From contig CAZQEL010000002.1 in assembly GCA_964591795.1 (NCBI GenBank), positions 38,412 through 64,995 of the forward strand: DNA of 26,584 nt. Direction: 5' to 3'. The notes beneath the pieces were generated by a model, which searched no databases, had not been told where the DNA came from, and saw nothing but the letters and a program-made list of their open reading frames with translations. Shown here one piece after another: positions 11,960-25,981 of the stretch; the stretch's first letter is position 1, and each line of letters begins with the position of its first letter. The position numbers and the translations under genes were made by a program. This stretch comes from an uncultured archaeon (GTDB lineage: Archaea > Iainarchaeota > Iainarchaeia > Iainarchaeales > CSSED10-239).

Positions 11960-13894
11960 ATGAGTGAAAATAAATATTATCCATCAAAAGAGTTTTCTGA
12001 AAAAGCATATATTAAGTCAATGGAAGAATATGATAGAATTTATGTTGAGTCAATAAAAAATCCAGAAAAATTCTGGGGAGAAAAAGCACAGGATCTATCT
12101 TGGTTTAAGAAATGGGATTCTGTTTTTGAATGGCATGATATTGATCAACAACTATATTCTTGGTTTAAGAATGGAAAACTAAATGCCTCATATAATTGTC
12201 TTGATCGTCATTTAGAAAAAAATGGAGATAAGGTAGCTTTAATTTTTCAAGGTGAAGACGATTCTAATGTTAAAAAATATACTTATAAAGAACTTCATTT
12301 GGAAGTATCTAGATTTTCTAATGTTTTAAAGAAATATGGAATAAAAAAAGGTGATCGGGTATCTATTTACATGCCAATGATACCTGAGTTTTTAATTTCT
12401 CTTCTTGCTTGCGCTAGAATTGGTGCTATTCATTCAGTTATTTTTGCAGGATATAGTGTTTCAACTATAAAGGATAGATTAATTTTTGCAAAATCGAAAA
12501 TATTAATTACAGCTGATGGTGCTAATCGTGCTGGAAAAAAATTAAATTATAAAGTATCAATTGATGAAGCAATAGATGGTGTGGACTCTATTGAAAAAAT
12601 AATCTATGTTAAAAATATTAATTTAGATATAGATTATAAAAAAGATAAAGAACTTATTTATCATGAAGAAATTAAAAAAGAAGATATTTTAGATGAATGT
12701 GTTCCTGAACAAATGGATTCTGAAGATCCATTATTTATTTTATTTAATTCAGGAACTGTTGAAAAACCAAAAGGAACACTTCATACAACTGCTGGATATC
12801 TTTTATATGTAAATCAAACTTTCAAATATATGTTTGATTATCATGGTTCTGAAGTCTATTGGTCAACAGCTGATATTGGATGGATTACAGGGCATTCATA
12901 TTTAGTGTATGGTCCACTTTCAAATGCTGCAACTGTTTTAATGTATGAAGGTGTTCCAACTTATCCTGATAATAGTGTTTATTGGAGAATTATTCAAAAA
13001 CATAAAGTAAATATTTTTTATACAGCTCCAACAGTAATAAGATCTTTAATGAGATATGGTCTTGATCCTGTTAAGGACTTTGATTTATCTTCATTAAGAA
13101 TATTAGGGTCTGTTGGTGAGCCTATTAATCCTGAAGCATGGATTTGGTATTATGAAAATATTGGTAAAAACAATTGTCCCATAGTTGATACTTGGTGGCA
13201 AACAGAATCTGGTGGTTTTTTAATTTCGCCTTTTCCTGGTGCATTTCCATTAAAACCAGGTTATGCAACTAAACCTTTTTTTGGAATTGATGCTGATATT
13301 TTAAGAGAGGATGGGACAAAATCATCTGTTAATGAATCAGGGTCAGTTGTTATAAAAAAACCATGGCCAGGTATGATGAGAACAATTTATGGAGAACATC
13401 AAAAGTTTTTAGATATTTATTTTTCAAAATATAAACACATTTACTTTTGTGGAGATCGAGGAAAAATAGATGAAGATGGTTATTTTTTCATAATTGGAAG
13501 AATGGACGATGTTATTAAAGTATCAGGTCACAGAATTGGTTCAGCTGAAGTTGAATCAGCTTTAGTTTCTAATAAGAATGTTGGTGAAGCTGCAGTTGTG
13601 CCTTTTCCACATGATATTAAAGGACAAGCTCTATATGCTTTTGTTATTTTAAGAAATGGTATAGTTCCATCTGATGATTTAGTTATAGAACTAAGAGCGC
13701 ATGTTGCTAAGGAAATTGGTCCAATTGCAAAACCTGATAAAATACAATTTGTTGAAGCACTTCCGAAAACAAGTAGTGGAAAAATAATAAGAAGAATTGT
13801 TCGTGCCATTGCCTATGACTCTGAAGATTATGGTGATCTTTCAACTTTGTTTAATCCTAAAGTAATTGAACAAATAAAATGTAAAAAAATTTAA
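11960..13894 (+). CDS. acs: Acetyl-CoA synthetase (AMP-forming)
   Basis: 644 aa with YWSTADIGWITGHSY, WWQTESGG, GDRG..DEDGYFFIIGRMDDVIKVSGHRIG and LPKTSSGKIIRR (conserved catalytic/acetylatable Lys). Confidence 0.93.
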   Translation: MSENKYYPSKEFSEKAYIKSMEEYDRIYVESIKNPEKFWGEKAQDLSWFKKWDSVFEWHDIDQQLYSWFKNGKLNASYNCLDRHLEKNGDKVALIFQGEDDSNVKKYTYKELHLEVSRFSNVLKKYGIKKGDRVSIYMPMIPEFLISLLACARIGAIHSVIFAGYSVSTIKDRLIFAKSKILITADGANRAGKKLNYKVSIDEAIDGVDSIEKIIYVKNINLDIDYKKDKELIYHEEIKKEDILDECVPEQMDSEDPLFILFNSGTVEKPKGTLHTTAGYLLYVNQTFKYMFDYHGSEVYWSTADIGWITGHSYLVYGPLSNAATVLMYEGVPTYPDNSVYWRIIQKHKVNIFYTAPTVIRSLMRYGLDPVKDFDLSSLRILGSVGEPINPEAWIWYYENIGKNNCPIVDTWWQTESGGFLISPFPGAFPLKPGYATKPFFGIDADILREDGTKSSVNESGSVVIKKPWPGMMRTIYGEHQKFLDIYFSKYKHIYFCGDRGKIDEDGYFFIIGRMDDVIKVSGHRIGSAEVESALVSNKNVGEAAVVPFPHDIKGQALYAFVILRNGIVPSDDLVIELRAHVAKEIGPIAKPDKIQFVEALPKTSSGKIIRRIVRAIAYDSEDYGDLSTLFNPKVIEQIKCKKI

Positions 13895-15831
13895 GAAAAA
13901 GCTTTTTCAAGTTTTAAAAGAGTGTTCCATTCTTTATCAATATTTTCTTGAATCTTTTTTATTTCTTTTTTATTTTTTAAAATATCTTTAAACTTTGTTT
14001 GCATTTTTAAAAATTCTTCAATTGGTTTTCTATTTGTTGGTTTGTGATTAATTTTATATTTACTATCTTCACATTCATAGAGTGGCCAAAAGTTTGTTTC
14101 TGTTGCAAGTTTTGAAATATCAATTGTTAAATCTTCAGGTGCTTTCATGTTTGTTGGACAAGCTGCATAAACAATTATTACAGCTGGGCCTTTTTTCTCA
14201 AAAGCTTTTCTGAATTTTTCATGCATGTCTAAAATATTACCAGGGTTAGCTGTTGCAACATATGGTATATTATGTGCAATTGCTATTTTTGCTAAATCCT
14301 TTTTAATTCCAGGTTTCCCACCAGGGGTTGTTGTGGTTGTAGCGTCCATAGGTGTTGCTGATGATCTTTGAGAACCAGTATTTTGGTATCCTTCGTTATC
14401 ATAACACACAAAAACAAAATCATGTCCTCTTTCAAGAGCTCCAGAAAGACTCTGAAGTCCAATATCAAAACTATTCATATTAAGACTAATTCTACCATCT
14501 TTTTCAATTATCATTATATGGTTTTTTTTAAGTTCTGGGCAATATATTTTTCCATTATAATCATAGCTTGATATATTTTTTTTTCTTAAATTTGCAAGGT
14601 TGGTTGGTTTATAATCTGAAAAAGAAATTGCATATTCAAATCTATTTTTTCTTTTTCTTTCATCTAAATGTACTCTATATCCTAATTTTAATGCAATTTC
14701 AATAACATCATCTTTTAATATTGGTGAAATTGTACTATAAGAATATGCTGTAGAGTTTTTTCTTTTAATTACTGTTCCATCACCTTCAATTAAGGCATCT
14801 AATAATATTTTTAAATATTTATTTGATAATTCTTTAAATTCTAATGGTATGAATTTATCTTTTGCTTTTCCAAATTGAGTTAGGTAAGTCCATAATTGTT
14901 GATTACTTATAATAAATCTATCTGTAGAGTACCAATAATTAAATTTAATTTTATTTAAACAATTTGTAATGTTAGTTATTGTTTTTTTCTTTGTTTGAGC
15001 TATAAACGTATTATATTTTTCTCTTTTTTTGGATTTTTTAGATAAGTGTCCTTCAGAAATCCAATATCCTAAAAAAGATAACCAATTTTTCATTTTTATT
15101 TTATTTAATATAACTTTGTTTCCTGAAATTTTATTATATTTTACAGATGGTAATGTAAAATATTGTTGATCTTTTCCATCCCATTTTAAATTTCCAGTTA
15201 TAATATTTATTTTATCACTTCTGCTATAATTTAAAAGTTTATGTGCTTTTATCACTTCAACTTTATTATTTAATTTATTGTATACTGGCACATTATGTAA
15301 TAATGACACATCAAAATGAACAAAATTATGATTAACGGATACGATTTTATTTTTATAGTTATATTTATGCATTTTAACTATTGTTGATTTTTCCATTTTC
15401 ATATTTTTAGGGTTTATTGACCAAATAATGTCTTTTGTATTAATATTTTCAACATTTTTAAAACCATTTTGTGTTAATATTTTTGTTCCAGGAATATAAC
15501 ATCCACCATCTCCTGCAAAAGCCATGAATTTAATTTCTTCTTTTATTTTATTTTTTCTTTTTAAAACTTTATATGCTGTTTCTACTCCAGAGATTGTTGC
15601 AGCTGCATTTGCAAATACAGAGTGTATCCATGGTTCGTTCCAGGATGTATAAGGGTAAATTGTAGTTGTTACTTCTGCACATGATGTTGCTGATGAAACT
15701 ACAATTTTTTTATCGGTTGCAGCATAAGCTGTTCTTAAAATTATAGTAATAGGGCATCCTGGACAAGTCCTATGGCCAGGCATAATTGCTTTTCTATCAT
15801 TTATTTTTTTTGCAAGTTCAATATTATTCAT
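13891..15831 (-). CDS. porB: Pyruvate/2-oxoacid:ferredoxin oxidoreductase beta (TPP-binding) subunit, interrupted by a 343-aa intein
   Basis: The N-extein has HRTCPGCP and ends FAGDGG. The C-extein resumes SFDIGLQSLSGALERGHDFVFVCYDNEGYQNTGSQRS, completing the GDG...N TPP motif. The spliced length would be 303 aa, normal for PorB. Confidence 0.9.
   Translation of the reverse strand: MNNIELAKKINDRKAIMPGHRTCPGCPITIILRTAYAATDKKIVVSSATSCAEVTTTIYPYTSWNEPWIHSVFANAAATISGVETAYKVLKRKNKIKEEIKFMAFAGDGGCYIPGTKILTQNGFKNVENINTKDIIWSINPKNMKMEKSTIVKMHKYNYKNKIVSVNHNFVHFDVSLLHNVPVYNKLNNKVEVIKAHKLLNYSRSDKINIITGNLKWDGKDQQYFTLPSVKYNKISGNKVILNKIKMKNWLSFLGYWISEGHLSKKSKKREKYNTFIAQTKKKTITNITNCLNKIKFNYWYSTDRFIISNQQLWTYLTQFGKAKDKFIPLEFKELSNKYLKILLDALIEGDGTVIKRKNSTAYSYSTISPILKDDVIEIALKLGYRVHLDERKRKNRFEYAISFSDYKPTNLANLRKKNISSYDYNGKIYCPELKKNHIMIIEKDGRISLNMNSFDIGLQSLSGALERGHDFVFVCYDNEGYQNTGSQRSSATPMDATTTTTPGGKPGIKKDLAKIAIAHNIPYVATANPGNILDMHEKFRKAFEKKGPAVIIVYAACPTNMKAPEDLTIDISKLATETNFWPLYECEDSKYKINHKPTNRKPIEEFLKMQTKFKDILKNKKEIKKIQENIDKEWNTLLKLEKAFS
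14473..15501 (-). mobile_element. Intein with LAGLIDADG homing-endonuclease domain inside porB
   Basis: It starts with Cys (CYIPGTKILT, block A) and has a block-B-like SLLH. Two LAGLIDADG motifs are present (LSFLGYWISEGH, LLDALIEGDGT). Block F/G is IYCPELKKNHIMIIEKDGRISLNMN, with terminal Asn and +1 Ser. The penultimate residue is Met rather than the usual His. Confidence 0.85.
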
Positions 15832-17821: not shown

Positions 17822-18373
17822 CTATAAAATAATTATTTTTTTTAAATATTTTATTAATTCATTAAAAAAAGCATATATTTCTGGAATGTTTATAAAATAA
17901 TGTTCTTTATACTTTCTTAATTTTTCTTCAGTCCATTTTTGATCATGCCATTGTTCTTTATAATCTAAAACGTGAATTACTGGTTCTAAGGCATCTATAG
18001 CTTTTGCAAACTTACTTTCTATTGTTTTTTGTTCTTTAAATTCATTATAATATTTTTTATATTCTTCTTTTAACTCATCTGGTATTTTATTAATTAATAT
18101 TTCATAGGCTTTATCTTCAAGCATTTCTCTTTTATGGTTATCAACTATTTTATAGTGATCTTTTGAAATTATTTCAACTAGATCGTGATATGCTAATAAT
18201 TTTAATACCTGTAATTAATTGATAGGTTCTGTTATTTTTTTAAGAAAATATTTTGCGATTATGATTGTTGCCCATGAGTGTTCAGCTGAAGATTCTTTTC
18301 TGTTTTTTACTGTTGAATATCTTTCTACTTCTTTTAACTTTAATAAAAGTCTTATTTGATCTAAATTTTTCAT
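17822..18373 (-). pseudogene. HD-domain (YfbR/HD_3-like) phosphohydrolase with a single in-frame TAA
   Basis: The ATG at 18373 overlaps the porD TGA (ATGA). It reads MKNLDQIR...RKESSAEHSWATIIIAKYFLKKITEPIN-TAA(18215-18217)-LQVLKLLAYHDLVEI...MLEDKAY..., continuing in the same frame into the 17822..18124 ORF (AKAIDALEPVIH...). The HD dyad lies after the stop, and no canonical restart codon precedes it. Confidence 0.8.
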
Positions 18374-19401: not shown

Positions 19402-19755
19402 ATGCCAAATATAAAATCAAAAGATAGCTTTTCATGGGCAAAAGGTTCAACTTATACAAATAATCCTAGCTACCAAAGTACTGTAAATTATAAAAAAGAA
19501 TCTGTAGGCTTTGTTTCTCTTTCAAAAATAGTCACAGATATTAGAAAGATTCAAAGATTACTTTCTATTTCATTGTCCTCATTAACAAGAGAGGATTTAA
19601 CAAATTTAAAAAAAGATATTGTTTATTTTCAACATATGATTTCAAAAAATATTGCACAAAAAGATGCTCCTTCTAATATTGTAAGAGATTATAATAACTT
19701 AAATGAAGATGTTAGAGTAAAAATTTCAGAAATAGATAAAAAAATACTTAGTTAG
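19402..19755 (+). CDS. Hypothetical 117-aa protein
   Basis: AAGGTG at 19387-19392 lies 9 nt upstream of the ATG. I recognise no motif. Its stop overlaps the convergent membrane-protein stop. Confidence 0.6.
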   Translation: MPNIKSKDSFSWAKGSTYTNNPSYQSTVNYKKESVGFVSLSKIVTDIRKIQRLLSISLSSLTREDLTNLKKDIVYFQHMISKNIAQKDAPSNIVRDYNNLNEDVRVKISEIDKKILS

Positions 19756-21461
19756 TTTTTCTTTTTATTTCTTTTTTTATATTTTGTATATAGCTTATTA
19801 ATTATCCATGTTAGTATTATACAACCAATTGTTAAGCTTAAAATTCCTGATATTCCTTGCATAAACTCATTAGCAATTGCAAAAGATACTCCAATACCAA
19901 ATATTAAAAGACCACTGAATAGCTTTAGTATTTTTCCGTGTTTGTCTTCCATTTTACTAATTTTAAGTGTGAATGCTGCTATTGTGAATAAAACTATTTC
20001 ATCAAGGAGATAAATAAACATGTATATTATTAAAAGAGTATAGTACCATGTATTTGAAATTGTGCTGTTAGCAATCATGTTTGCCCAAAGTAAAGGAAGT
20101 CCTGCTGTACAAGGTATTTCTAAAATTGTAACCCCTGCAGCTAAAATTATAGTTCCTAAAATTATAGTGAAAAAGGTATTTTTAGGATTCATTAGGTTTC
20201 TTATTCTGTCAAATATTTTTGGTTTTTGTTTATCTGAAATAGTTAAAGAAATACCTTTTTTATACCAAAAATAGTCTTTAATATTAATTAGTCCAAAGAT
20301 CACTGATATTAAAACAATTATTAATTTAATTATTGGGCTATAAAAAAAGATTAATGCGTTAAGCACACTTGTGATAAATAATCCGTATATTATAGCGGTT
20401 ACTGTTAAAAATGTAGCTCCGATAATAAATATTTTTTTTCTAGATCCTGAATATACAATTATACTTAATAAAAATAATAATATCCATAGTGAACAGGGGT
20501 TAAGTCCATCTACAAAAGAAATAATTAATGTGTTTAAAAATAAAGATTTATGTTCAACACTAATTTCTTTACCAAATAATTTTATTTTATTTTCGCTATC
20601 TTTACTTGAAACATATTCGTTGCTACCAGGTAATTTTGTTGTAATAGATTCTATTGTATCTAATGGAGAGTTACAATTAATTTCTGTTGCGTAACATCTG
20701 TCAATTGCTTTGTTTAAATTATCTTTTATGTTTGTTTCTCCAGTAATGTATGTATTTCCAATAAATGCTGTTGGATATGCGTCTATTTGTATTGCATAAA
20801 CTTCTTTGTATTTTAAAAATAAGTCTTTATTTTCTTGAAGATTCAGATTATGTTTTTGAATATTTAAATTTGGATATTTTGTTTCTATATATTTAAAATA
20901 TTCTAATGTGTTAATACATTGTTGACAATCGTTAACATAAAATAAATTAATTAATATTTCCTTTCCTTTATTTGGTTCAAGAACAGTTGCTGTTTCTGGT
21001 GATTGAAATACAGTTACATAATTGGAGTCGCTAGTATACATTTCCCAAAGTTTTGGATCTTTTAAGTATATCATTGTATCTTTACAATTATTTATTGAGC
21101 AGTTATTAATTTTAGATATGATTTCTTGTTTAATATTTTCATTAAATCCAATCCATGATTTATTACCAATGAAAGTTATGGGGATACTTGTTGTTTTTTT
21201 ATTAAATGTGTTTCCAAACTCAACAAGTAGTTTTGCACTATCTCGTACAGTGTCAAGTTCGAAATAATTTACTTTAACATTAAGATTTATATTCACATAA
21301 TTCTTTAAAAAAGATTTTTCTTGAGCGCAGTAAGGACAATTAGATGTTCCAAAGAAATAAATATTAACTTCATTATTTGTTGTTTCTTGTGCGTTAATAA
21401 TTCCTGAAAAAGTAGTTATTATAATTGCAAGTATTAATATTATTATTATGTTTTTATTCAT
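19752..21461 (-). CDS. Secreted double glutaredoxin/thioredoxin-like domain fused to a CcdA/DsbD-like thiol-disulfide transporter membrane domain
   Basis: Signal/anchor segment first. Trx-fold module 1 has CPYC (FFGTSNCPYCAQEK) and module 2 has CQQC (YVNDCQQCINT). A polytopic C-terminal half carries two membrane-embedded Cys motifs (GLNPCSLW and EIPCTAGLP), as in CcdA/DsbD cores. Confidence 0.8.
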   Translation of the reverse strand: MNKNIIIILILAIIITTFSGIINAQETTNNEVNIYFFGTSNCPYCAQEKSFLKNYVNINLNVKVNYFELDTVRDSAKLLVEFGNTFNKKTTSIPITFIGNKSWIGFNENIKQEIISKINNCSINNCKDTMIYLKDPKLWEMYTSDSNYVTVFQSPETATVLEPNKGKEILINLFYVNDCQQCINTLEYFKYIETKYPNLNIQKHNLNLQENKDLFLKYKEVYAIQIDAYPTAFIGNTYITGETNIKDNLNKAIDRCYATEINCNSPLDTIESITTKLPGSNEYVSSKDSENKIKLFGKEISVEHKSLFLNTLIISFVDGLNPCSLWILLFLLSIIVYSGSRKKIFIIGATFLTVTAIIYGLFITSVLNALIFFYSPIIKLIIVLISVIFGLINIKDYFWYKKGISLTISDKQKPKIFDRIRNLMNPKNTFFTIILGTIILAAGVTILEIPCTAGLPLLWANMIANSTISNTWYYTLLIIYMFIYLLDEIVLFTIAAFTLKISKMEDKHGKILKLFSGLLIFGIGVSFAIANEFMQGISGILSLTIGCIILTWIINKLYTKYKKRNKKKN

Positions 21462-21685
21462 TTTTTTGCCTTTTTGTTATTCACTGTTATAAATTCGTTA
21501 ATTTCATTAATTAAATTTTTTTTATTTATTCCATACATTTTGCAAACAGAACCAATGTCTAAAATATCCATTTCCATTTTTGCCATAGGGCACATAACGC
21601 ATGGAAAATTATGGCTTAAAAGTATATCTATAACTTCTTTCATTTCAAAAAGTTTTTTTAATTTAGTTTTATCTGTTATTTTCAC
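21458..21685 (-). CDS. DUF1858-like small redox-disulfide protein (CxxC)
   Basis: 75 aa. VIDILLSHNFPCVMCPMAKMEM..LDIGSVCKMYGI resembles the hybrid-cluster-protein-associated redox disulfide domain. Its stop overlaps the downstream start (ATGA). Confidence 0.7.
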   Translation of the reverse strand: MKITDKTKLKKLFEMKEVIDILLSHNFPCVMCPMAKMEMDILDIGSVCKMYGINKKNLINEINEFITVNNKKAKK

Positions 21686-21688
21686 AAT

Positions 21689-22828
21689 TTATCTTTTTGA
21701 CATTTCTTTAAGTTTTTTAATGATTGGAATTAATTCAGATATTAATTTATCTGCATCTTCAAAAGTTGTTTCTTTACCAAGTGTTATTCTTATGTGTCCT
21801 GCTTGTTTTGTGTCGTTTGCTTTTATAGCCTTAAGCACATGATTTTCGTTATTATTATTAGAACCACAAGCAGATCCTGTAGATACTTTTATTCTTCTTA
21901 TATCTAAATTAAATAAAAGCGCATCTCCTTCAATTTTGTCAAATAAAAATGCAGTATGGTTACAAAGTCTATTTTCAAGAGGACCTAATAGTTTAACATT
22001 ACCTAATTTTAAAATATTATCAATTAAATGGTTTCTTATTTTTTTCATATATAATATATCTTCTTTATTAATTACATTAATACATTCTTGAAAACCAATT
22101 ATTCCAGGTACATTTAAAGTTCCACTTCTTAGATTGTACTCGTGGCCACCACCATGTAATAATGGAGTTAAATTAATACCTTCTTTTATTATTAAGGCTC
22201 CAATTCCTTTTGGTCCATATATTTTATGTGCATTTATTGTGACTAAATCTATATTTTGTTTTTCAAGATCAATTTCTGTTTTACAAAAACTTTGACAAGC
22301 ATCTATGTGTAAAAATGTTTTCTTTTCAGAACAAATATTACCAATTTTTTTTATATCTTGAATGGTTCCAATTTCATTATTTCCATGTATGATTGAAACT
22401 ATTATTGTATCATTTCTAATTTTATTTTTTAAATCTTCAAGATCTACAAATCCTTCTTTATCAACTTTTAAATATTCAACCTCATATCCTTGTGTTTTAA
22501 GGTATTTAACAGTATTAAGTACACTATCGTGTTCAATTGGAGTTGTAAGTATGTGTTTACCTTTATTAACATAACTCTGAGCAATTCCTTTAATTGCAAG
22601 ATTATTACTTTCAGTTCCACCAGAGGTAAAAATAAGTTTATGGTTAGTTGCATTTAGTTTATTTAAAATAATATTTCTTGCATTTTCAACAAGTTCGTTA
22701 ATTTCAACACCCAATGAATGCATGCTTGAACTGTTTGCAAAATTATCTGTAAAATAAGGTTTCATTTTTTCAAAAACTTTACTATCAACCGGTGTTGTTG
22801 CTGCAAAATCTAAATATATATATTTCAT
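21689..22828 (-). CDS. nifS: Cysteine desulfurase (NifS/IscS-type, class V PLP enzyme)
   Basis: Has IFTSGGTESNN, INAHKIYGPKGIGAL (PLP Lys), RSGTLNVPGI and STGSACGS (catalytic Cys loop). Confidence 0.9.
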   Translation of the reverse strand: MKYIYLDFAATTPVDSKVFEKMKPYFTDNFANSSSMHSLGVEINELVENARNIILNKLNATNHKLIFTSGGTESNNLAIKGIAQSYVNKGKHILTTPIEHDSVLNTVKYLKTQGYEVEYLKVDKEGFVDLEDLKNKIRNDTIIVSIIHGNNEIGTIQDIKKIGNICSEKKTFLHIDACQSFCKTEIDLEKQNIDLVTINAHKIYGPKGIGALIIKEGINLTPLLHGGGHEYNLRSGTLNVPGIIGFQECINVINKEDILYMKKIRNHLIDNILKLGNVKLLGPLENRLCNHTAFLFDKIEGDALLFNLDIRRIKVSTGSACGSNNNNENHVLKAIKANDTKQAGHIRITLGKETTFEDADKLISELIPIIKKLKEMSKR

Positions 22829-22831
22829 AAT

Positions 22832-23140
22832 TTAATCTCCTTTATCGTATAAAGAACAAGCATCTTTACAAAATTCTTCTCTGTGTTTTTTAATATGTTT
22901 AATAAGTGGTTTGATTGTTTTTTTATTTAAAGTGTATATTATATATTTTCCTTTTCTTTTTGAAAAAACAATTTTACATTCAGAAAGAATTTTTAAGTTG
23001 TGACTTACTTTTGATTGCTCTTCATTAATATCATTACATATATCTGTAACTGTTTTATCTTTATCATATAAGGAATAAATAATTTTCCATCTTGTTTTGT
23101 TTGAAATTACTGTAAAAAAATAATATGATTCGCACTTCAT
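22832..23140 (-). CDS. ArsR/SmtB-family HTH transcriptional regulator
   Basis: 102 aa. The wHTH pattern is ISNKTRWKIIYSL..KDKTVTDICNDINEEQSKVSHNLKIL....V..RKGKYIIYTL. The C-terminal CKDAC pair could sense metal or redox state. Confidence 0.8.
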   Translation of the reverse strand: MKCESYYFFTVISNKTRWKIIYSLYDKDKTVTDICNDINEEQSKVSHNLKILSECKIVFSKRKGKYIIYTLNKKTIKPLIKHIKKHREEFCKDACSLYDKGD

Positions 23141-23260
23141 ATAAAATATATTATAGAAAATGTTTAAATATTTATTTATTATCTATATTTTTGATTTTTT
23201 AGATAAATATATATATTTAATTGAAATTGAAAAAATATGGTCTGATATTGTTCACTTGAA

Positions 23261-24531: not shown

Positions 24532-24602
24532 GCCTCGATGGCAGAACGGTCATGCATCCGCCTGCAGAGCGGAAGAATTGGGTTCGACTCCCTATCGAGG
24601 CT
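24532..24602 (+). tRNA. tRNA-Cys(GCA): tRNA-Cys (anticodon GCA)
   Basis: The 7-bp acceptor stem gcctcga/tcgaggc has discriminator T, as expected for tRNA-Cys. The anticodon stem tccgc/gcgga carries loop ct-GCA-ga. The T-arm ttggg-ttcgact-cccta has one U-U mismatch. It is the only GC-rich island in the region; no CCA is encoded and no intron is seen. Confidence 0.88.
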
Positions 24603-24710: not shown

Positions 24711-25358
24711 ATGATATTAAATTATAAATATAAAAATTTAATTTTTAATACTTGTTTTATGAATGCTTCTGGACCATTATGTTCTACCTATGAAGTACTT
24801 TCTGAAATTGGTAAATCTAATTCTGGAGCTGTTGTTTTAAAGTCAGCAACAATTGAGCCAAGAGATGGGAATCCTGGTCCACGTTATTTTGAAAATAATT
24901 TGATTTCTATTAATTCTATGGGTCTTCCAAACCCAGGTTATAAAAAACTGATTGAAATTATTCCAAAATTAAAGGAATTTAATAAACCAATTATTGCAAG
25001 TATATCTGGTTTTTCAAAAGAAGATTATTTAGAAATGGTTAGAGAGTTTGATTCTAAAGGTGCAGATATTTTAGAAATAAATTTATCTTGTCCAAATATA
25101 GTTGGTAAACCACAGGCTGGTTATAATTTTGAATATTCAAAAGAAGTTTTAGAAGCAGTAAGAAAAATAACAACTAAACCAATTGCAGTTAAATTACCAC
25201 CATATTTAGATTTAGTACATCAAAAACAAATTGCTGAAATACTAATAAATGCAAAAGTTGATTTTGCGGTTCTTATTAACTCTGTAGGTAATTGTTTAGT
25301 TATTTCTTGCATAATTTCAATGGTAGGATTATTTTTTAATACATTTGATATTCCATAA
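24711..25358 (+). pseudogene. pyrD: Dihydroorotate dehydrogenase (class 1), 3'-truncated; homology ends near 25289-25292
   Basis: AAGGTG at 24696-24701 precedes the ATG at 24711. DHODH blocks run through NASGP, VLKSAT, NSMGLPNPG, ASISG, EINLSCPN, AVKLPPY and VLINSVGN. The frame then enters the antisense of a tandem repeat (CLVISCIISMVGLFFNTFDIP-stop). The C-terminal third, roughly 100 aa by comparison with typical class 1 enzymes, is missing. Confidence 0.8.
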
Positions 25359-25981
25359 TATAAAAAACCGGTTTTATATGGTGATTCAACTTTTGCCAAT
25401 TGTTTAGTTATTTCTTGCATATATATTTTAAAATGTTCAATAGTAGGATTGTTTTTAAATATATTTGATATTCCATAATATAAAAAATCAGTTTTATATG
25501 GTGATTCAACTTTTGCCAATTGTTTAGTTATTTCTTGCATAATTTCAATGGTAGGATTATTTTTTAATATACTTGTAACTCCAAATTTTAAAAAATCTGA
25601 TTTAGGTTGTGATTTAAATTTATCTAATTGTTTATTTATTTCTGCTAATATCTCTATATTTTCAACAACAATATGATTATTATTTAAAAACCATTTTTTT
25701 AATATGTCTAGTTTTTCCAGATCATATTTTGGTTTAGAATTTGTTTTTATAAGTTCTTTAGGAATCTTCTTTTTTACTTTAAAAGATTCATTTTTTATTT
25801 TTTCACTATTTATTATGATTTTTTTAAAATGTGTATTTTTTTTAGGGTTTGCAATGTTTCCTGTTGTTGCTTCTAATTTAACTTCTTGTTTTTTTATATA
25901 ATCTATATACTGTAATTTTCCATCTGTATATTCTTTTATTTTTTCAACAATATTTTTATTTTTAATTATTACCATAGGCAA
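25220..25981 (-). CDS. Tandem-repeat protein of unknown function (36/40-aa repeats), probably a truncated or decaying gene
   Basis: Repeat units read MQEITKQLAKVESPYKT(D/G)FLYYGISN(I/V)(F/L)KNNPTIE. The last 23 residues are antisense pyrD sequence. The frame stays open upstream to a TAA at 26174-26176 with no canonical start other than the TTG at 25981. Confidence 0.55.
   Translation of the reverse strand: MPMVIIKNKNIVEKIKEYTDGKLQYIDYIKKQEVKLEATTGNIANPKKNTHFKKIIINSEKIKNESFKVKKKIPKELIKTNSKPKYDLEKLDILKKWFLNNNHIVVENIEILAEINKQLDKFKSQPKSDFLKFGVTSILKNNPTIEIMQEITKQLAKVESPYKTDFLYYGISNIFKNNPTIEHFKIYMQEITKQLAKVESPYKTGFLYYGISNVLKNNPTIEIMQEITKQLPTELIRTAKSTFAFISISAICF
25290..25650. repeat. Tandem DNA repeat, units of 108, 120 and 108 bp plus a degenerate partial unit
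   Basis: aattgtttagttatttcttgcat recurs at 25290, 25398 and 25518, with a degenerate copy at 25626. Units A and B share a long identical 3' half. Unit B has a 12-bp insertion and unit C diverges in its second half. Confidence 0.85.

Follow-up and report, generated by a model that had tools for sequence, protein, structure and literature searches.

The window analyzed here is a 26,584 nucleotide (nt) stretch of DNA from an uncultured archaeon (GenBank assembly GCA_964591795.1, contig CAZQEL010000002.1). It carries four consecutive genes that code for an ArsR-type regulator, a NifS-type cysteine desulfurase, a small DUF1858-like protein, and a 569 amino acid (aa) membrane protein with two glutaredoxin (Grx) modules. 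The locus is probably a composite. One part would be a trimmed Fe-S operon (ArsR-NifS-DUF1858), the other a gene for a membrane thiol relay, and the two appear linked by regulation and not by chemistry. The initial annotation had taken the four genes for a dedicated thiol/sulfur operon in which a persulfide-generating enzyme is functionally paired with a transmembrane (TM) relay. This pairing is not borne out, since the linkage is absent outside the clade of the window and relatives carry an ArsR-NifS-IscU-DUF1858 operon without the membrane gene. The features of the gene string and its borders are given below; loci compared with the window are cited by number (L001, etc.), and Trx stands for thioredoxin.

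23141..23260, minus strand: upstream intergenic region, putative promoter of the gene string, 120 nt, AT-rich.
22832..23140, minus strand: ArsR/SmtB-family regulator with a C-terminal Cx3C pair, 102 aa (HTH_5 and NF033788).
21689..22828, minus strand: type I (IscS/NifS/MisS-like) cysteine desulfurase, 379 aa (Aminotran_5 and NF002806).
21458..21685, minus strand: DUF1858-like small CxxC protein, 75 aa, GTG start (sub-cutoff DUF1858 and TIGR03980 matches; orthologue profile against 2k53).
19752..21461, minus strand: predicted secreted Grx-Grx-7TM thiol relay protein, 569 aa, entire gene (homologues and AlphaFold2 model).
21390..21461, minus strand: signal-like hydrophobic N-terminal segment of this protein, residues 1–24 (...SGIINA/QE) (model helix 2–19; hydropathy peak at residues 1–26).
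21081..21374, minus strand: Grx module 1, CPYC, residues 30–127, followed by a Cys121/Cys126 pair (Pfam Glutaredoxin and model fold).
20667..20966, minus strand: Grx/Trx-fold module 2, CQQC, residues 166–265, followed by a Cys256/Cys263 pair (3gnj profile match and model fold).
19782..20555, minus strand: 7-TM domain, residues 303–560, with the Cys323 codon at 20493–20495 (TM1) and the Cys451 codon at 20109–20111 (TM4) (invariant columns and TM-only model).
19402..19755, plus strand: convergent 117-aa gene that appears to mark the old 3′ boundary of the operon (homologues directly after DUF1858 in L101, L110, L111 and L112).

The gene-neighbourhood comparison proposed with the initial annotation was run, and it found the linkage limited to the immediate clade, the outcome named there as evidence against a shared pathway. 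A scan of genomes gave 80 loci with homologues of the membrane protein, and 82 loci were used for tblastn and for clustering of open reading frames (ORFs). With the window ArsR, NifS and DUF1858 sequences as tblastn queries, all three are found only in L001–L004, i.e. the window's own contig and three Forterrea/Iainarchaeum-like ones. These four loci share synteny over the whole region, from Mre11 to the pyruvate:ferredoxin oxidoreductase (POR) genes. Of the 80 loci, two have both NifS and DUF1858, and these are Forterrea/Iainarchaeum-like. The 75 other genome loci with the membrane gene show no DUF1858, and two of them have a distant NifS-like gene. Overall the four-gene linkage is seen only in L001–L004, L083 and L084, all of which are Forterrea/Iainarchaeum-like. 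NifS-like genes in L037 and L063 were considered as independent support for the linkage and rejected; they show approximately 25% identity and are not adjacent to the membrane gene.

The converse test was a pattern scan of metagenomes with the DUF1858 protein, which gave 39 loci. NifS is found in 22 of these and IscU in 18 (NifU_N, E-value = 1e-41), and the membrane gene is present in two, both Forterrea-like. The usual orders at DUF1858 loci are (ArsR)-NifS-IscU-DUF1858 or NifS-DUF1858-IscU; bacterial-looking loci display the order ferredoxin, PP-loop ATPase, NifS, IscU, DUF1858.

Two of the metagenome loci (L111 and L112) carry the flanks of the window, with Mre11 upstream and a homologue of the 117-aa gene directly after DUF1858. 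In both, IscU is present and the membrane gene is absent. A metagenome-assembled genome (MAG) labelled Diapherotrites, GCA_035451465.1, shows a tightly spaced ArsR-NifS-IscU-DUF1858 operon, also with no membrane gene at that place. Its DUF1858 protein is 46% identical to that of the window and the ArsR that heads its operon is 59% identical, and the MAG shares the macro-synteny of the window (eIF2beta-DUF424-RIO1-KH ... POR). The nearest genomes to the window are those of Ca. Forterrea multitransposorum and a Ca. Iainarchaeum MAG, and the source is accordingly a DPANN archaeon of Iainarchaeota/Diapherotrites type. The window itself has approximately 25% GC and carries archaeal housekeeping genes, e.g. 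eIF-2beta, eIF-1A, RIO1, a KH protein, diphthamide synthase, Topo VI, Mre11 and POR subunits.

The 117-aa gene (19402–19755) and the membrane gene converge, and their 3′ ends overlap by 4 nt. A Pfam search with the 117-aa gene product gave no match. In several relatives, homologues of this gene keep a syntenic position at the end of the NifS-IscU-DUF1858 operon.

The ORF list confirms the four same-strand genes as first annotated, all on the minus strand, with spacers of 3 nt and 3 nt and a 4-nt overlap. Same-strand spacers across the rest of the window are also short, about −47 to +190 nt and typically 15–30 nt; thus tight packing alone is weak evidence for a functional unit. The reported cysteine motifs (CKDAC, CVMC, CPYC, CQQC, NPC and PCT) are all present in the translations, and the identities given to the genes (ArsR, desulfurase, DUF1858-like, Grx-Grx-TM) hold by family matches.

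The desulfurase matches Aminotran_5 in Pfam with an E-value of 7.6e-80. It scores 310.5 bits against a cutoff of 304 on NF002806 (IscS subfamily), and falls below the cutoffs of the specific NifS and IscS equivalog models of NCBIfam. Among solved structures, Archaeoglobus fulgidus IscS2 is the best-matching relative (4r5f/4eb5; E-value = 1e-96, full length). When aligned to this protein the sequence displays the AHK motif with the pyridoxal phosphate lysine and the STGSAC active-site loop with the catalytic Cys. As the initial annotation stated, there is no Fe-S scaffold gene beside the desulfurase; no IscU, SufB or SufC homologues were found within the 26.5-kb window. The window thus lacks the pairing of a desulfurase with IscU/MisU that is characteristic of an ISC/MIS operon. 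This is a lineage-specific absence of IscU from an otherwise standard NifS-IscU operon, and it is therefore not evidence for a non-Fe-S role of NifS.

In the E. coli-type isc operon IscR stands first, whereas the window operon begins with an ArsR-type regulator whose C-terminal Cys pair is conserved. The NifS-IscU pair of non-diazotroph archaea is a described system, termed MIS (MisS-MisU) (PMC13066941). In common with NifS-IscU operons of the MIS/ISC type, the window has a type I desulfurase closest to A. fulgidus IscS2, and the relatives of the window carry IscU directly downstream of NifS. The window copy differs in being without IscU and in ending with a DUF1858 CxxC protein, which is not among the MIS components in PMC13066941.

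The 75-aa protein contains the motif PCVMCP. It scores 25.8 bits on DUF1858 (PF08984) and 32.1 bits on TIGR03980, below the respective cutoffs of 32.2 and 44.95 bits. A profile built from its orthologues matches PDB entry 2k53 with an E-value of 2e-7, and four of five close homologues found by a word-index search carry a precomputed PF08984 match, including a 100% identical database copy. PCxxCP is kept in 36 of 38 homologues; L118 and L119 keep the CxxC without proline on either side. Selenocysteine (CxxU) forms of DUF1858 exist (PMC9312934), which points to redox chemistry for the DUF1858 protein. In relatives of the window the DUF1858 gene is the last gene of NifS-IscU operons. DUF1858-type CxxC genes recur in last or penultimate position of NifS-IscU operons in L089, L101–L104, L108, L111, L112, L115, L116 and L121–L124. 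Where such operons are archaeal-looking, an ArsR with a Cys pair stands first; in the bacterial-looking ones a ferredoxin and a PP-loop ATPase take this place. The conserved ArsR-NifS-IscU-DUF1858 operon places DUF1858 in a concrete and testable context of Fe-S and sulfur trafficking.

The regulator matches HTH_5 in Pfam (E-value = 1.6e-9) and scores 63.8 bits against a cutoff of 55 on the NCBIfam ArsR/SmtB metalloregulator model NF033788. PDB relatives include CzrA, SmtB and NmtR. The C-terminus (...FCKDAC...) carries a Cx3C pair, which is kept in 9 of 10 clustered ArsR sequences, i.e. in all those adjoining NifS. The sequence without it is the second ArsR copy in L116. The Cys-rich ArsR is likely a redox or Fe-S sensing repressor. 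The region 23141..23260 is the probable promoter of the gene string; its last ~35 nt (..TATTTAAACATTTTCTATA..) are conserved between the window and the Forterrea-like loci L004 and L002. Inverted repeats in this region were considered as ArsR operators and set aside, there being many imperfect AT-rich palindromes, which are uninformative at about 20% GC.

The 569-aa protein shows the motifs CPYC (residues 42–45), CQQC (179–182), NPC (321–323) and PCT (450–452), and the codons of Cys323 and Cys451 were checked by translation. An AlphaFold2 model of the whole protein, made with 73 homologues, has a pLDDT of 84 and displays a hydrophobic helix (residues 2–19), a first Grx fold, a disordered linker, a second Grx fold and seven TM helices. 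Both Grx modules are modelled as beta-alpha-beta-alpha-beta-beta-alpha folds. In a TM-only model (pLDDT 83.7, pTM 0.80) TM1 is broken at N321-P322-C323 and TM4 at P450-C451-T452. Cys323 and Cys451 are invariant among the 73 sequences; Cys42 and Cys45 of the first CxxC, and Pro94 of the cis-Pro loop, are each conserved in at least 90% of them. Module 1 matches Pfam Glutaredoxin (PF00462) with 23.8 bits (cutoff 22.9), as do 69 of the 73 homologues, and it superposes on the A. fulgidus Grx 3ic4 with a TM-score of 0.70, normalised to the length of the target. Module 2 gives a weak Redoxin match and a profile match to the thioredoxin-domain protein 3gnj (E-value = 1e-5). In the alignment the long homologues, Forterrea-like ones included, have module 2, and most Anaerolineae-labelled homologues lack it.

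Loops after TM1, TM3 (8 K/R) and TM5, as well as the C-tail, are rich in K/R. The Grx region, 287 residues long and with eight cysteines, is thereby placed on the outside of the cell, the protein being predicted N-out by the positive-inside rule. The outward-facing Grx modules of the initial annotation thus agree with the topology prediction, from both the model and the positive-inside rule. The membrane domain also contains a conserved cytoplasmic loop, NIKDYFWYKKGISFTISDKxKPKIF. No internal sequence repeat of TM1–3 and TM4–6 is detectable by hhalign.

The family is large. There are 580 homologues of the 569-aa protein at E ≤ 1e-3, and with the TM domain as sole query there are 2,404 cluster representatives (50% identity) at E ≤ 1e-3, 1,111 at 1e-10 and 347 at 1e-30. 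Nearly all relatives of the TM domain bear an N-terminal extension of 130–350 residues. No Pfam or NCBIfam model covers the membrane domain of this family. Split forms are found in L054 (5959–7347) and L056 (4808–6181), where a gene for a 140–146 aa secreted Grx is followed by a TM-only gene of 309–313 aa. The TM-only genes keep the NPC and PCT motifs. From the sequences, these split genes indicate that the Grx and TM parts may function as separate polypeptides.

In the DsbD superfamily a Cys pair in TM1 and TM4 hands electrons to an exported Trx-like module (PMC3322552). The 569-aa protein resembles DsbD, CcdA and ScsB in having one Cys each in TM1 and TM4, beside a proline at a helix break, and in being predicted N-out with Trx-fold modules on the outer face. 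The two Grx/Trx folds are located between the signal-like helix and TM1. It differs in having seven TM helices, as compared with six in CcdA and eight in DsbD and ScsB, and in the highly conserved cytoplasmic loop. Its distant homologues have a GcvH-like lipoyl protein as conserved genomic partner; the known families work with thioredoxin. Two tandem Grx folds at the N-terminus make up its exported modules, whereas in DsbD there is an alpha domain of Ig-like fold at the N-terminus and a Trx-like gamma domain at the C-terminus.

A profile search of PDB sequences with the 569-aa family did not return CcdA. By hhalign, six DsbD_2 proteins align collinearly and the first Cys falls in register, at E-values of 0.008–0.025 and a probability of about 2%. 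In a Foldseek search with the TM-only model the CcdA NMR structure 5vkv gives the highest TM-score and probability of all matches (0.38/0.44; prob 0.60, 248 columns, E-value = 0.81, rmsd 8.1). The CcdA/DsbD-like membrane domain of the initial annotation thus stands as regards the invariant Cys in the broken TM1 and TM4, and homology to CcdA/DsbD is weakly supported, plausible but unproven. By analogy, the 569-aa protein is a putative new variant of the CcdA/DsbD design, from a large family without an existing model.

Other known proteins show partial likeness. Foldseek with the whole model gives only soluble Trx/Grx proteins, the best being the Pyrococcus PDO 1a8l and the AhpF N-terminal domain 5h29 (E-value about 1e-3). 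These two-unit PDOs also have two tandem Trx/Grx folds with a CxxC in each; however they are cytoplasmic and soluble, whereas the modules of the 569-aa protein are exported and fused to a membrane domain. Global superposition is poor, with TM-scores of 0.33–0.34 normalised to target length and an rmsd of about 17. The sole Pfam membrane family matched by the 569-aa protein is SfLAP/GAP (PF11139; 21.1 bits, residues 312–497), but the match is below the 35-bit cutoff and is found in only 5 of 73 family members. SfLAP/GAP and DsbD belong to the same Pfam clan (LysE). We know of no report of an invariant Cys pair or exported Grx modules in SfLAP proteins.

The neighbours of the membrane gene in distant loci are of a different kind. 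In ORF clustering of the 82 loci, 17 distant loci (L005–L012, L015, L017, L018, L022, L028, L047, L054, L056 and L064) show a GcvH-like gene immediately 3′ of the Grx-TM gene, with gaps of −56 to +29 nt, mostly overlapping. The lipoyl-lysine motif is conserved in 18 of 18 GcvH-like sequences of the clustered loci. The GcvH-like gene is usually followed by one for a Grx of 145–175 aa with CPHC and an N-terminus that resembles a signal or lipoprotein sequence. Then follow one or both of two gene sets, one with TusA/YedF-like, TsuA/YeeE-like, DsrE/TusD-like and DsrH-like genes, the other with a CoA-disulfide-reductase-like flavoprotein, LipA, LplA and an LplA C-terminal domain. Often found upstream are ArsR, a MTH895/ArsE-type thioredoxin, an ArsP_1 permease and a small ferredoxin. 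Anaerolineae-type loci display local synteny only, or ars-type neighbours. The 17 loci apparently belong to the candidate phyla radiation (CPR) or DPANN, a placement we infer from mostly low GC and typical gene content, the taxon labels of MAGs being unreliable. GcvH, lipoylation or TusA-type partner genes are not present in the window. A literature search found no paper describing the Grx-TM family or its GcvH cluster.

Sulfur-oxidising sHdr-LbpA systems have accessory TusA, DsrE, the lipoate-binding GcvH-like LbpA and a lipoate ligase. The distant loci share with this set a GcvH-like lipoyl protein, LplA, a lipoyl synthase and TusA-, DsrE/DsrH- and YeeE-like genes under an ArsR-type regulator. 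They differ from it in that no Hdr-like genes were seen there, the lipoyl synthase is the canonical LipA and not LipS1/S2, and the central conserved pair is the Grx-TM protein and GcvH.

The composite locus would have arisen from an ancestral ArsR-NifS-IscU-DUF1858 Fe-S operon of ISC/MIS type. In the lineage of the window IscU would have been lost from its position in the operon, and the Grx-TM gene would have joined the 3′ end, in the Forterrea/Iainarchaeum-like lineage alone. In the first unit NifS would make persulfide from cysteine, with IscU as the scaffold in the full operon and the DUF1858 CxxC protein as an accessory thiol/disulfide factor. In the second, a cytoplasmic dithiol donor would reduce the membrane-buried Cys323-Cys451 pair, which would then reduce the CQQC and CPYC Grx modules on the outside, and these would reduce surface or secreted targets. 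Both units would be co-transcribed from the ArsR promoter, with shared regulation and no shared chemical pathway. Export of reductant to the extracytoplasmic Grx modules is the most likely function of the membrane protein, and its gene is probably co-expressed with the Fe-S genes and not mechanistically coupled to them.

Several observations weigh against this composite reading. The 4-nt overlap of the DUF1858 and membrane genes suggests translational coupling. In the clade genomes that keep the arrangement the membrane proteins are only 57–72% identical, and since the arrangement is kept in several of them despite this divergence, some selection for co-expression within the clade is possible. 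The TusA, YeeE/TsuA, DsrE and DsrH neighbours in distant loci may point to a recurrent sulfur connection of the membrane gene, which if real would partly rehabilitate the idea of the initial annotation. As to the relay itself, Pfam DsbD (PF02683) matches none of 73 family members and DsbD_2 (PF13386) one of 73, weakly (E-value = 0.012), so that homology is not statistically established, and all E-values of the TM-only Foldseek search are >0.7, with no significant match. As to the direction of flow, the commonest motif of the family is CPHC, the active-site motif of the oxidase DsbA. The four genes could form one ArsR-regulated pathway after all, in which DUF1858 would hand sulfur from the NifS persulfide, or reducing equivalents tied to it, to the Cys pair in the membrane, and from there it would reach the Grx modules at the surface. 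The 3/3/−4 nt spacing, the retention of the arrangement in L002–L004, L083 and L084, the absence of IscU beside NifS in this clade and the analogous persulfide-handling set near distant membrane-gene homologues are consistent with it. Such a pathway is nevertheless quite improbable. Of 77 analysed non-self genome loci that have the membrane gene, 75 lack the linkage, as do 37 of 39 DUF1858 loci, NifS and DUF1858 are conserved within NifS-IscU operons of the same synteny that have no membrane gene, and synteny of the whole region within the clade means that conservation there says little. We also know of no CcdA/DsbD-type protein that moves sulfane sulfur.

A more limited coupling would have the DUF1858 CxxC protein recruited as the cytoplasmic donor of the membrane domain, in the place that the GcvH-like lipoyl protein appears to take in most two-module homologues. 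In the 17 distant loci the gene that directly follows the membrane gene encodes just such a carrier, a small cytoplasmic dithiol protein with the lipoyl-Lys conserved; in the window GcvH is missing, and DUF1858 overlaps the membrane gene and belongs to a family with CxxU forms that point to redox chemistry (PMC9312934). This replacement is unlikely, however: DUF1858 was already last in the NifS-IscU operon before the membrane gene arrived, and in the nearest relatives (L002–L004 and L083) a gene for a secreted Grx of 185–189 aa lies between the two. The relay could also run in the oxidizing direction, as a quinone-independent disulfide-forming system that would serve organisms without respiratory quinones, with the exported Grx comparable to DsbA, the membrane Cys pair to DsbB/VKOR, and electrons moving inward. 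The CPHC consensus of module 1 and of the stand-alone secreted Grx, further conserved Cys pairs in the exported part that look like structural disulfides, and the apparent concentration of the family in CPR/DPANN-like lineages and Anaerolineae would fit. We regard this direction, and its service to such organisms, as doubtful. In the window protein the motif is CPYC, as in classical glutaredoxins, and the conserved neighbours in distant loci (lipoyl-GcvH and a NAD(P)H-flavoprotein disulfide reductase) are low-potential carriers, to which electron flow from a DsbA-like couple would be uphill. All characterised proteins with Cys in TM1 and TM4 export reductant (PMC3322552). Thus the composite reading, with reductant moving outward, is preferred; the gene string is best read as a scaffold-less Fe-S assembly operon plus an unrelated membrane gene, and its annotation as a pathway is unwarranted.

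As the four-gene arrangement is a lineage-specific juxtaposition, the GcvH/lipoylation/sulfur-relay neighbourhood of the distant homologues is the more promising subject. A speculative view, to which we give a rather small chance, is that the Grx-7TM family is an unrecognised class of transmembrane thiol relay in apparent CPR, DPANN and Anaerolineae. Instead of thioredoxin, its native partner in the cytoplasm would be another protein-bound dithiol, in most lineages lipoyl-GcvH, which the CoA-disulfide-reductase-like flavoprotein would recharge. The relay would be wired to persulfide or sulfane-sulfur trafficking (TusA/DsrE/YeeE in other lineages), and in the window NifS and DUF1858 would have replaced this cytoplasmic module. 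If so, the adjacency of NifS and DUF1858 to the membrane gene would have a functional basis. To our knowledge it is not established how CPR/DPANN organisms manage extracytoplasmic cysteine redox chemistry. The tight and repeated coupling to a lipoylatable GcvH-like protein and to genes of lipoylation suggests, in a form open to test, what such genomes use lipoate for and by what route reducing power reaches the surface. CPR/DPANN organisms are reported to lack electron transport chains (bioRxiv 10.1101/2020.04.07.029462).

Other observations concern the rest of the window. The POR beta-like gene for a thiamine pyrophosphate enzyme (13891–15831, minus strand) codes for 646 aa, as compared with 308 aa in a Diapherotrites-labelled relative, and has a faint precomputed LAGLIDADG_3 match. 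The L002 homologue of this gene matches Intein_splicing and LAGLIDADG. These features suggest a putative intein inside the pyruvate:ferredoxin oxidoreductase beta subunit. Between the POR subunit genes there are two adjacent ORFs on the minus strand (17822–18124, 100 aa, and 18215–18373, 52 aa), both of which match the HD_3 phosphohydrolase domain. The pair has the look of a single HD-domain gene that a frameshift or stop codon has interrupted.

A tRNA-Cys (GCA) gene is found at 24532–24602 on the plus strand, between Mre11-like and dihydroorotate dehydrogenase-like genes and about 1.4 kb upstream of the ArsR-NifS string. That it lies close to the gene of an enzyme which consumes cysteine is probably coincidental. 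The ORF at 25220–25981 (minus strand), of 253 aa and without a Pfam match, contains a tandem DNA repeat at 25316–25643, with units of 108–120 nt in about 2–3 copies and 79–94% matches. The repeat encodes repeated peptide units (..MQEITKQLAKVESPYKT.FLYYGISN..KNNPTIE..).

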